This document shows, piece after piece, positions 45,001-48,000 of a stretch of 64,000 bases of DNA. Made by a program: the position numbers. The stretch's first letter is position 1, and every line of letters begins with the position of its first letter. The DNA is taken from assembly GCF_002854065.1 (NCBI RefSeq), contig NZ_CP024152.1. One strand, given 5' to 3'. Source of the DNA: Escherichia coli. Lineage in GTDB: Bacteria > Pseudomonadota > Gammaproteobacteria > Enterobacterales > Enterobacteriaceae.

Positions 45001-48000
45001 CTGATAATAATGTTCCAGAATTAATATCTGCAGGCTATGTTAAGTTGTCCCCACACACAATCTACCTGTTTTCTCGTGTGTGCCACAGGCGCAATACATA
45101 AATAGTCTGGCCAGTAAGTTCGTAACGGATTTCGTACTCGCCAGCAAAAATCCGTCTGACCTCCCTGGGTTCAAACTGAAATAACTGTTCCCCCATACGT
45201 GGATGAGTTAACAGAATGACCGGAGCCTGTGTCAGGGACTGCACCGTTCTGGCGGCCGCAGGTTTACTGGCCAGCACCAGAAAATCATATAACCGCGCCA
45301 AATCAGAAAGCGCCTTACTGGTCCACTTCAGTTCCATCAGCGTGGCACCGGTAACGGATTGTCAGTACTGAGGCTGTCCGCCCAGGCCTGTACAGCCTGA
45401 TGGTCGATAACCTGTCCGGATGTCACATCGTCCAGGGCTTCCAGCGTCAGGCGATTACGCTCCTCCTCCTGGGCAAGCCATGCAGAAAGCGCCTGTTTGA
45501 TAATCCAGCCCCGGGAGCGTTCCAGTCTGGCGGCCATCTGGTCGACTTTATCAGCCATAGGTAATGGCACATGCGCGGTAATTACTTTTGTTGCCTGTGC
45601 GGTATTGTTTTTCATTTGCATATCCGATTAGCTGTTAATCATATTTAATCATAGTGATTACTTTCAGACGAAACAAGGCAAATAATGCGCGTCAGCGCAT
45701 GTAAGGCGGCACTCCGTTGTTACATATGGCACAGAAACAAAACCGCCGAAGCCCGGCGTCAGCCGGTACTGATTGATAGATTTCACCTTACCCATCCCCA
45801 TCCTGCTAAGCCATACCCGCTTTCAGCCATGAAATAGCTTCTGTGCGCGGTCGGAGTGGTCCCGACAAGGGTTTACCCGCAGTCGGGGCGTATCTCCGCG
45901 TTAGCGGGCCGTCAGGGCCGCTTACGAGCGTGTACTGAGGACTTCCAGCCAGAAGACTGGCAGCGATGACAATGTAGTTACAACATTCATAATTAAAAGC
46001 GATGTTGTTCCCGCCCTTCGGGCGGGGGCGGCTTCGCTTTTCAGTTATGAGGGGTGGGCGCGGTGCTGCGTTTGTGTGGTGTTTTTTATTCCTGATGTTT
46101 TCGCGGTGGTTTCAGAACGGTGAGGTTCGGGGCCCGCGCGTTAGCGTGGGAGGTGCTTTTAGATTCTGAGCGGCGAGGCCTTGGCCGCTGCAAGCGAAGG
46201 CCTCTTTGTATTTGTTCACAGTGGTTTCAGAGATAAAGACTTTCCCTGCGGCGAAGCAACGCAGGGGATTAAATAATGGGGTTAGGACTATATTGCAGGT
46301 TTGCTGTTTCAGGTTTGCAGCTTTTTAAAGTTCTTTGTTTGCGGATTTATGTGGATAACTGAAACAACGTGGCCATGTTCTGATGACTGATACGTGGTTT
46401 TATGGGCAGATATGCCCCTCTGAGGGGATTTAAGGTGATTACTGCAGATTTTGGGCTGAGCGGAATCAGCGCCGAAAGCCCCGGAGGGGCTGGCGATGAT
46501 TCAGTGCTGAAGGAATGGTGCTGTCTAGTGCGGCGGTGGCGCAGCCAGCGTCAGTTCAAGCTGACGCAACTCCCTGATGGCCAGTCGCTTCAGATGGTCA
46601 TCGGAACAAAAATAGGCTTCATCCGGCGGCAGACGCTTCCTGAGATACTCTGCCATCTCATGAATCTGCTGGTCGGCAGGCAGTTTCTTCAGACGTCTGG
46701 CGCGCTTACTGGCTGCCGCTTTTGCACGACGGTGTTTCAGTGCATCCTGGCTGCGCTGCAGATACCAGCGTTTTCTGGCCGCATGTACGGAGATATCTTC
46801 ATCCTCACGCAGTACGCCTTCCCGGATGAGTTGCTGGCGGATTTCACTTTCACGCAACCGCTTCTGCTGCTGTTCGTGAAGTTTCACCATGTCGACGCCC
46901 AGCATCTGCCAGCCTGCCGGTGTTATCCAGACGTAACGTGGCAGACGCTGGCGGGTTTCACGGTCCCACAGGGTTTCCTCTGAAACACCCAGCACACCAA
47001 AACGTACCTGTTCGGCCAGCAAACGGGAAAGGCGGGAGACCGTCACTTCCAGTTCCGGAATAACCTTCCCCTTGCTGTCTTTCGGGCTGATTTCTCTGGC
47101 CAGACGGGAAACACTCATGCCTACGGTATGTGTGCCCGCATCACTGAAGCTGACCAGAACCGGCCAGACGGCATCGAGGAGGCGTTGTTTTTCCGGACGG
47201 AAAGCATATTTGCGACCGGCATACGTTCGTTTCTGCACGTAAAAAGGATGCAGAGACATGTGCATGCGCAGGCTCTGCTCGCCGGTCACCGGGTCCTTTT
47301 TCACCAGACGGTTGTAGGCGTGCCCGAGCTGCCCGCTCAGCGCCTTATAGCGCTCAGGACGATACCAGGACGGATTTTCGCATTTGGGTTTGGTGGAGTG
47401 CTCACCACGACGACGCTTCGTGCGCTTCCTTTCCGGTTCAACCAGGAAAGTGGTCGCCCTTCCCGCTTCATAGTCTTCCCAGAAACGGATCTGCTCTTCG
47501 GGTGCTAACTGACACCAGTGTACTGCGTTATATGGAGTATTCTTCAGACCTGCCACAAGCTGTCGCTTATGGCGGAGCGATTGTGCCGTGTATTTATACA
47601 CTGCACAGGGTTGAATCTCTGGTACGGTTTCATTATACTTTACCCGTATTCTGTGAGGCCCCCACTATCTTTCGTCGTTCCGCCAAGTTCGTAAGAAAGA
47701 TAGTGGGGGTTTTCCTTTTATGGCTTCCGGAACATCTTCAGTCTTCTGACTTACTGCCCGTACATGCCATCTCTCCTGAATGCCTTATGGCGCATTCTGC
47801 CGTCCGACTTTCGCCGCTTTGCTCCACAGAGTGCCACCCTCTGCACAGCTAATAACAGCCGAAATATACCCGCTTTACGTTAATTTGAAAAGCATTACAA
47901 CGATCTCTTCTCTTCCAGTGCCTCCTCACTGATACCTCTAATAAGTTAATCTTGACCTGCGTCAAAAAAATAAAATCTATTTTTAAAAGCAGATTTTTCT

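Follow-up and report, generated by a model that had tools for sequence, protein, structure and literature searches.

Since the late 1980s, the plasmids R1 and R100 have been known to carry Ter sites and a G site for primase downstream of oriR. In R1, both ter sites are located between oriR and the start of the leading strand, and in the model for this plasmid terRR halts the fork after one round of replication (PMC10331603). The primase-dependent start of the leading strand in R1/R100 is placed by the literature beyond Ter as seen from the origin, in the region which matches the G-site core described below (PMC10331603). The repA4 region holds ter sites and matters for stability, according to a statement in PMC4398462 that cites Jiang 1993, and in pEC958 transposon insertions are depleted in the homologous repA4 region (PMC4398462). 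For the IncI backbone (R64-type), whose replicon type is that of the DNA studied here (PK-repZ, 194 bits), a passage of PMC6361801 citing Sampei 2010 lists "ter" downstream of oriV.

The window, that is, the whole stretch of 64,000 nucleotides of Escherichia coli DNA that was analysed (contig NZ_CP024152.1), belongs to an IncI1/Iγ plasmid. In the Rfam covariance-model scan, PK-repZ was matched with 194.5 bits at 47569-47717, and the annotation of the RepA/RepZ ORF and of the toxin-antitoxin pair agrees with near-identical IncI-gamma/K1 plasmids. The segment under study (45690-46050) lies, as in the earlier note, between the toxin-antitoxin pair (45062-45621) and the ori, which carries a DnaA box. 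Starting from ori, the order in the window is long hairpin, Ter, G-site core and left block. The features are the following.

45062-45621, minus strand: RelE/ParE toxin and ribbon-helix-helix antitoxin, one flank of the segment
45685-45842, no strand: left conserved block of the module, similar to R100
45685-45700: hairpin ATGCGC-GTCA-GCGCAT, in the left block
45734-45758, minus strand: terminator-like hairpin CGCCGGGCTTCGGCG plus GTTTTGTTTC, from the terminator scan, in the left block
45753-45771: hairpin CCGGC-GTCA-GCCGG followed by TACTG, in the left block
45843-45934, plus strand: G-site core, presumed primase (DnaG)-dependent leading-strand priming signal, by homology to the R1/R100 region
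45853-45897, plus strand: stem-loop A of the G-site core, predicted in single-stranded DNA
45899-45926, plus strand: stem-loop B of the G-site core, predicted in single-stranded DNA
45935-45970, plus strand: variable spacer from the G-site core to Ter, with two 5'-CTG-3' as candidate primase start sites
45971-45993, minus strand: Ter site, predicted Tus-binding fork barrier, 23-mer ATTATGAATGTTGTAACTACATT, by consensus match
45986-46051, plus strand: long imperfect hairpin of roughly 60 nt, from RNA/DNA folding and covariation
46010-46026, plus strand: inner GC stem CCCGCCC-TTC-GGGCGGG, within the long hairpin
ends of 45995-46041, plus strand: outer stem AAAAGCGA/TCGCTTTT, within the long hairpin
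about 46165-46360: ori, downstream of repZ, the other flank of the segment
46350-46358: DnaA box, inside ori
46525-47601, minus strand: repZ

The segment is very probably the replication module found just beyond the origin of IncF/IncI-type theta plasmids, composed of a priming signal, a Ter site and a hairpin. In detail, 45690-46050 is 91.1% identical (361 bp) to the "repA4 region" of R100, which lies beyond oriR. The arrangement after oriR in R1/R100 (NR1) is also that of the window, with ori, long hairpin, Ter in the terRR orientation, G-site core and left block, and in both a toxin-antitoxin operon follows the module. The module is already known and ordinary rather than a new gene for a small RNA. 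It is present in at least 5000 PLSDB plasmids, and at 69 loci across Enterobacterales among one-genome-per-species contigs.

The initiator and the ori proper of R100 are unrelated to, or very diverged from, RepZ and the ori of the window: CIS and ori show an identity of only 50%, and RepZ gave no significant BLASTP match to RepA1 of R100. R100 also has terRL (L002 30076-30091), which the window and the other I-complex plasmids examined are without, and a 128-aa repA4 ORF that is not intact in the window. The earlier note had proposed that the segment may be part of the origin. In the broad sense of a conserved post-origin module this holds, but the segment sits beyond the minimal ori, which contains the DnaA box at 46350-46358. 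The comparison of replicon boundaries proposed in the same note bears this out, with the homologous stretch of R100 located downstream of oriR (PMC10331603, PMC4398462, PMC6361801).

The Ter core GAATGTTGTAACTA at 45975-45988 on the minus strand has no mismatch to the consensus GNRNGTTGTAACKA, G6 included. It is the single exact core match in the 64 kb, against 0.01 expected from shuffles, and its 23-mer is identical to that of R100 at 21 of the 23 positions. In the rest of the window there is no other core match with fewer than two mismatches, and no site with three mismatches or fewer from 45988 to 47892, a range which takes in the stretch from Ter to repZ. A second, degenerate Ter near ori was not found, and the proximal site of R100 aligns to non-Ter sequence of the window. 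Of the paired, inverted sites of the terRL/terRR trap of R1/R100, the window has only the distal one. The Ter core is the most diagnostic feature of the segment, and it had been missed in the earlier note.

The polarity of Ter was calibrated on TerB, upstream of tus, in MG1655, which reads 5'-AATAAGTATGTTGTAACTAAAGT on the plus strand. TerB blocks clockwise forks. From this reading and this block it follows that the side of position 1 is the non-permissive one. The non-permissive face of the window Ter is thus directed toward ori/repZ, as in terRR of R1 (R100 alignment; PMC10331603). From sequence and orientation we infer that it is the equivalent of terRR of R1/R100, oriented to halt the fork after one round. 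Compared with the chromosomal Tus-Ter system of E. coli (TerA-J), the 23-mer of the window fits every position of the core consensus. TerB shares 18 of the 23 positions, with differences at positions 7, 20 and 22 and at the flanking positions 2 and 5. The chromosome has two opposed Ter groups opposite its origin, whereas the window has a single site beside a unidirectional plasmid origin.

Among 66 related loci, both Ter sites are found at 20, only the distal at 17, only the proximal at 8 and none at 21; the position and orientation of the window Ter are shared by 37. The terRL/terRR pair is variable, and I-complex plasmids retain only the round-ending site. With a single copy here and none at 21 of the 66 loci, Ter may be dispensable. 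The geometry of the site is awkward, since it separates ori from the G-site and turns its blocking face to ori, and the first outgoing helicase should meet it. This awkwardness is inherent to the published layout of R1.

The G-site core is presumed to be the leading-strand priming signal, because it is homologous to the region of R1/R100 where the leading strand starts. It is identical to R100 at 90 of 92 positions (97.8%), and its GC content is 0.674. Most of its columns are at least 90% conserved in 61 distinct sequences from Enterobacterales plasmids, a set collected with the central 19 nt of the core as the search pattern and with the flanks outside the pattern. In single-stranded DNA the two stem-loops fold with z -4.0, and in 39 sequences the pairing of stem-loops A and B is kept, with some compensatory changes. 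A fork that leaves ori toward lower coordinates has the plus strand as its leading-strand template.

The two CTG triplets of the spacer are located at 45935-45937 (within TACTG) and at 45957-45959. Both are also present in R100 and both are missing from many distant relatives, so the start site cannot be fixed by conservation. An attempt to place the primer start in this way failed, because conservation of the CTGs does not extend beyond E. coli-type plasmids.

A similar architecture is met in the complementary-strand origin of phage G4, a primase-dependent G site in which GC-rich hairpins stand 5' of a template-strand TACTG, as in the window. The single-stranded fold has z -4.7 in G4 against -4.0 in the window. 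The distance from hairpin to CTG is 4 nt in the phage and longer in the window (9 or 31 nt), and distant plasmid relatives do not conserve the CTG of the window. The comparison with G4 was made by architecture, after BLAST of 45830-46060 against phage genomes (the complementary-strand origins of G4, alpha3 and St-1) had given only chance matches (E=9) and no sequence similarity.

The wider segment is strongly structured. The earlier note had reported several stem-loops in a GC-rich region at 45840-46040. The stem-loops are well founded: as single-stranded DNA, the plus strand of 45830-46060 has a folding energy of -55.9 kcal/mol, where shuffles have -36.3 +/- 3.2 (z -6.1, 0/200), and the minus strand has z -3.5. 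The GC content is raised (0.587 against 0.498 for the window), but only moderately, at the 87th percentile of 201-nt windows. The terminator-like sequence CCCGCCCTTCGGGCGGG is present on the plus strand at 46010-46026, one base lower than first read. As for the T-rich run described after it, GGCGGCTTCGCTTTTCAG does follow CCCGCCCTTCGGGCGGG, but the run consists of only four T's, which begin 11 nt past the inner stem. In the terminator scan of the plus strand, an extended stem of 13 pairs (46004-46032) is followed by TTCGCTTTTC, and the run of four T's abuts the stem only if this extended stem, containing G.T/G.U pairs, is formed.

The terminator-like hairpin that had been noticed is real, and the long hairpin is under selection for structure, with the plus strand preferred. 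Folded as RNA, 45980-46060 gives -44.7 kcal/mol (z -7.1) on the plus strand and -27.8 kcal/mol (z -3.7) on the minus strand. Many of the pairs in the middle stem are T.G, and on the minus strand A.C mismatches open an internal loop. Among 53 distinct variants of the hairpin, which include 13 versions of the inner stem, the plus strand is the more stable in 52, with 291 T.G against 10 G.T pairs. In the alignment 89.9% of the cells are paired, against 33-55% in slid controls, and both partners have changed in 12 of the 25 pairs. Covariation scores 0.209, where shuffles score 0.105 (0/500). Base composition may account for part of the strand asymmetry, as there is a local excess of G/T on the plus strand.

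An A-tract and a T-tract flank the long hairpin, and its outer stem overlaps positions 1-8 of Ter. Its role is most likely that of an intrinsic terminator or insulator, as suggested by its form. It would be an imperfect terminator, as its T-run is short and touches the stem only by way of G.T/G.U pairs. No assigned function for it was found in the accessible literature, and no conserved promoter was found upstream of it on the plus strand. A single-stranded promoter of the Frpo/ssi2-3 type (PMC7736820) was considered for the hairpin and rejected, because normally spaced -35 and -10 elements do not fit into its 28-bp stem. Tentatively, the hairpin can be proposed as an independently selected, strand-specific element of undescribed function across Enterobacterales plasmids. 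It may act as a one-sided insulator against antisense transcription entering ori, or as the single-stranded limit of the initial unwinding. If the latter is true, it bears on how the helicase leaving ori handles the Ter that faces it. With its covariation and strong strand bias, the hairpin may be of interest to plasmid specialists, as may the variability of the terRL/terRR pair.

Two gene-based explanations of the segment can be weighed against the post-origin module. An unannotated small RNA, which the earlier note had named as one possibility, would run on the plus strand from a promoter in the conserved block to a rho-independent end at about 46045, and it is very unlikely. It would agree with the strong structure of the region and with a terminator-like hairpin that is supported by covariation and more stable on this strand in 52 of 53 variants. 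However, no Rfam family was matched in 45700-46050 at E<=10 or at the gathering thresholds in the covariance-model scan which that note had suggested, and the alignment of 45690-45840, inspected by eye, shows no conserved -10/-35 pair. For the sole sigma-70-like match on the plus strand (45966-45993), the -35 hexamer falls in the non-conserved spacer and the resulting transcript would measure ~40 nt. Besides, the most conserved part of the segment coincides with the priming region of R1/R100. For an IncFII plasmid, an RT-qPCR amplicon of the homologous "repA4" gave a signal (PMC11237657), but the assay is not strand-specific, and since the amplicon crosses the hairpin the signal suggests read-through. 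A small protein "RepA4", whether encoded by the historical rep-strand ORF of 128 aa or by the plus-strand ORF of 31-39 aa annotated in some records, is hardly credible. The 128-aa ORF of R100 (L002 30033-30419) does span the region, the opposite strand of the G-site is annotated in CP044025 with a 39-aa "replication protein RepA4", and the window has a 31-aa ORF with a GTG start (45843-45938). Yet the 128-aa ORF is broken in the window, where no minus-strand ORF of at least 30 aa covers 45802-46085, and a single name is carried by ORFs of opposite strands. In relatives, 1-nt indels in the G-site hairpin keep the pairing and break either frame, and conservation follows the stems rather than the codons. 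ORF integrity and these indels were the grounds for rejecting a protein-coding repA4. Upstream there is no plus-strand ORF of more than 50 aa, in line with the remark that no plus-strand gene is called there.

It is highly improbable that the segment is a hitch-hiking piece recently recombined from IncF plasmids, with Ter and G-site as dispensable relics. The module does contain mosaic junctions, with an I-type half joined to an FII-type half in IncK2/Z-typed plasmids, and many relatives have no Ter or only a decayed one. Against this, the G-site core is near-invariant out to Pantoea, Erwinia, Yersinia and Serratia while its flanks diverge, the stems are maintained by compensatory changes, and the depletion of insertions in pEC958 (PMC4398462) concerns the homologous region. 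A possible, though less probable, reading than a terminator is that the long hairpin works as DNA and not as RNA, as a structure of the displaced plus strand or a cruciform, and belongs to the machinery of priming and termination. In that case it might mark how far the duplex is unwound, keep SSB away or position the arrested fork. The hairpin shares its strand with the G-site and is located between ori and Ter, exactly where the plus strand turns single-stranded at initiation; its overlap with Ter, an asymmetry that favours the leading-strand template and a good fold with DNA parameters point the same way. On the other hand, G.T pairs hardly stabilise DNA, bidirectional intrinsic terminators typically have such an A-tract and T-tract at their flanks, and no report of such a role was found in the accessible literature.

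For the post-origin module, the following course of replication can be proposed from the sequence. RepZ, from the minus-strand gene at 46525-47601, would act in cis on the downstream ori (about 46165-46360), and a helicase would unwind toward lower coordinates, leaving the plus strand single-stranded. Host primase would then recognise the hairpin-rich G-site core (45843-45934) and make a single primer for the leading strand, which would be extended in one direction, away from repZ. After one circle the fork would re-enter through repZ and ori, meet Tus on the non-permissive face of Ter (45971-45993) and halt a few tens of bases short of the 5' end of its own strand. This stop would prevent strand displacement, rolling-circle over-replication or multimers. 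The hairpin at 45986-46051 would be a separately selected plus-strand structure, most likely a terminator or insulator that keeps transcription out of ori.

There is little new here for biology, and the practical value lies in annotation. In public records this block of 360 bp is left blank or, on one strand or the other, called a "RepA4" protein. The label should rather be leading-strand start and Ter site. The module is also a useful marker for replicon boundaries and for the direction of replication in IncI/IncF resistance plasmids.

The left-hand block is similarly conserved. Its part from 45690 to 45842 is 89.5% identical to R100, and pieces of it are conserved in 15 plasmids (IncI1, I2, K/Z, FII and FIC) and partly in the wider set. 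The minus-strand hairpin at 45734-45758 is conserved in sequence, yet its fold is no better than that of shuffles (z -0.6). The neighboring CCGGC-GTCA-GCCGG hairpin with its TACTG may represent a second unit resembling a priming signal.

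The plasmid is of the IncI1/I-gamma type, and PK-repZ (Rfam, 194.5 bits) is located at 47569-47717 on the minus strand. The setting of the segment is as follows:

45062-45621, minus strand: RelE/ParE toxin and ribbon-helix-helix antitoxin
46350-46358, minus strand: perfect DnaA box
46525-47601, minus strand: initiator gene (repZ)

In near-identical (99.9%) PLSDB plasmids, 45622-46524 is without annotation. Judged from its sequence, the segment 45690-46050 appears to be the known leading-strand start and Ter module of IncF/IncI replicons, with a single Ter; the finding is real but ordinary. 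Minus-strand sequence between the repZ stop codon and the antitoxin was aligned with R100 downstream of repA1, and identity contrasted sharply between the ori side and the module:

46061-46524: CIS and ori, 50% identity to R100
45690-46050: whole module, 91.1% identity
45843-45934: G-site core, the presumed priming signal, 97.8% identity
45971-45993: Ter 23-mer, 21/23 identical
45987-46049: long hairpin, 87% identity

RepZ showed no significant BLASTP similarity to R100 RepA1 (E 0.17). The homologous stretch of R100 is the historical repA4 region, and its 128-aa ORF, on the same strand as rep, is named RepA4 (R100 record, 30033-30419). In CP044025, an IncI2 mcr-1 plasmid, this name belongs to an ORF of 39 aa that runs opposite to rep (1642-1761).

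The + strand is the leading-strand template of a fork that moves from ori to lower coordinates, and it is also the better-folding strand. The stem-loops and GC-richness described in the earlier note are both borne out: the + strand of 45830-46060 folds as ssDNA at -55.9 kcal/mol versus -36.3 +/- 3.2 in shuffles (z -6.1; minus strand z -3.5), and 45840-46040 has a GC content of 0.587 versus 0.498 in the window (87th percentile). The fold of 45843-45934 gave two elements:

45853-45897, + strand: stem-loop
45899-45926, + strand: stem-loop

A TACTG motif (CTG at 45935-37) lies 3′ of them, and a second CTG at 45957-59. This topology is like that of the phage G4 complementary-strand origin, with its three hairpins ahead of CTACTG, where the annotated primer begins; sequence similarity between G4 and the segment was not detectable. 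Masai and Arai (1989) reportedly placed a leading-strand start, dependent on primase alone, ~400 bp downstream of R1 oriR, and plasmid G sites are said to share conserved blocks, their likeness to phage G sites being confined to the vicinity of the primer start (Tanaka et al. 1994).

A 19-mer taken from the core was used to search one-genome-per-species contigs for relatives and recovered 69 loci, nearly all from Enterobacterales (Pantoea, Erwinia, Yersinia pestis, Serratia, and Klebsiella among them). Within 45843-45934, positions flanking the 19-mer are conserved at ≥90% in most columns (61 distinct sequences), beyond this interval the sequence is divergent on both sides, and the pairing of the core stems is preserved via some compensatory changes. 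The exact primer start cannot be placed, because neither CTG is conserved in distant relatives. Three conserved hairpins of the module (45685-45700, 45753-45766, and 45903-45922, + strand) share a GTCA tetraloop, and TACTG follows two of them. This hints at a repeated unit and perhaps at a second priming signal in 45735-45775. Nine genome_contigs hits (L024, L030, L031, L041, L054-L056, L058, and L084) carry enterobacterial IncF-type replicon sequence under the labels Clostridiales, Streptomyces, Lachnospiraceae, Sporosarcina, Collinsella, and Capnocytophaga, likely through contamination or mis-binning.

The Ter core consensus GNRNGTTGTAACKA has one exact match in 64 kb (0.01 expected), at 45975-45988 on the minus strand, within the 23-mer ATTATGAATGTTGTAACTACATT running from 45993 down to 45971. 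Polarity was set from TerB of MG1655, which lies immediately upstream of tus and reads 5′-AATAAGTATGTTGTAACTAAAGT on the + strand. TerB blocks clockwise forks, therefore the position-1 side is the non-permissive face, and in the window this face points to higher coordinates, that is, ori and repZ. The fork-trap is described in PMC8347550. R100 has an equivalent Ter in the same orientation but, unlike the window, also a second inverted one nearer ori (TTTAGTTACAACACTC, 30076-30091), an arrangement that fits the published R1 model. Loss of Tus leads to multimers and rolling-circle forms (PMC10331603, after Hill 1988 and Krabbe 1997). The window retains only the equivalent of the ori-distal terRR; the position of the ori-proximal terRL is non-Ter sequence in every I-complex plasmid of the alignment, and no near-match lies close by. 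Published descriptions of the IncI-complex backbone already include a "ter" downstream of oriV (PMC6361801). Both sites are present in 20 of 66 full-length related loci, only the distal one (as in the window) in 17, only the proximal one in 8, and neither in 21; what stays constant is the G-site core, Ter being facultative. Lying on the path from ori to the G-site and turning its blocking side to ori, Ter should also be met by the first unwinding helicase, a difficulty already inherent in the published R1 layout.

The hairpin CCCGCCCTTCGGGCGGG reported on the + strand was found at 46010-46026, one base from its first placement. The feature is confirmed: the hairpin is present and GGCGGCTTCGCTTTTCAG follows, with a rather short T-run. 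A terminator scan extended the stem to 13 pairs (46004-46032), followed by TTCGCTTTTC. Around the inner GC stem, 45986-46051 forms an imperfect palindrome of ~60 nt whose base carries AAAAGCGA and TCGCTTTT; as RNA it folds at -44.7 kcal/mol on the + strand (z -7.1) and -27.8 on the minus (z -3.7). The structure is kept in 53 distinct variants with 13 inner-stem versions, for instance CCCGCCC/GGGCGGG, CCGGCCC/GGGCCGG, and CCGGGCC/GGCCCGG. In the alignment 89.9% of cells are paired (33-55% in slid controls), both sides changed in 12 of the 25 pairs, and the covariation score is 0.209 versus 0.105 in shuffles (0/500). The + strand is stabler in 52/53 variants (mean -32.6 vs. -24.4 kcal/mol), and wobble pairs are T.G in 291 cases and G.T in 10. 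Pairing, covariation, and strand stability therefore indicate a structure under selection with a + strand bias, which a local excess of G and T on this strand may partly explain.

No assigned function was found for this hairpin. An intrinsic terminator or insulator is our best guess, because A- and T-tracts flank it and the stem reaches the T-run on the + strand; that it serves instead as an ssDNA element of the priming/termination region is a possible, more doubtful reading. A + strand small RNA gene, as the earlier note had suggested, is very unlikely: the covariance-model scan for known RNA families gave no Rfam match in the segment, and no conserved promoter was seen. The view that the segment is a relic carried in by recombination has little credibility, being contradicted by cross-genus conservation, covariation, and insertion depletion in pEC958. 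Least of all should a "RepA4" protein gene be expected. In the window the R100 ORF is interrupted, different records put the name on ORFs of opposite strands, and frame-breaking indels in relatives leave the stems intact. Across relatives neither of the two ORFs stays whole, and the name is therefore likely a label for conserved DNA, not for a protein. Upstream on the + strand, in agreement with the earlier reading, no ORF >50 aa exists.

Two IncK2/Z-typed plasmids (L008 and L016) have the I-complex version from the hairpin to ~46150 (aligned to 46050-46160) and an IncFII-type ori and RepA past it, therefore a recombination junction lies inside the post-ori module. At the ori-distal border, 46133-46150 (+) forms a conserved hairpin, CCCGCGC-GTTA-GCGTGGG, flagged as terminator-like on the + strand; its R100 counterpart, CCCGCCGC-TTGC-GGTGGG, shows compensatory changes and overlaps the old repA4 ORF start. 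G(G)TTTCAG repeats occur across the ori region at 46108, 46223, and 46306 (+), with an inverted CTGAAAC at 46359 (+) adjoining the DnaA box; these may be binding repeats for RepZ, termed "iterons" in work on IncI plasmids. In the CIS region, ~35 nt past the repZ stop codon, AGCCCC-TCC-GGGGCT followed by TTTCGG (46472-46491, minus strand) looks like the CIS terminator described in related replicons. The repZ control region has a C4 antisense RNA (RF01695, 48570-48657, +, 77.5 bits, above gathering) immediately upstream of it, preceded by 90 nt by a c4 a1/b1 target-like match (48431-48483, +, 32.9 bits, below gathering); the two make up an immunity RNA pair of P1/P7 type, here on an IncI plasmid. 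Elsewhere, sok antitoxin RNA (4812-5029, minus, 74.9 bits) and AgrB antisense RNA (4100-4187, +, 55.3 bits) each exceed the gathering threshold of their Rfam family.
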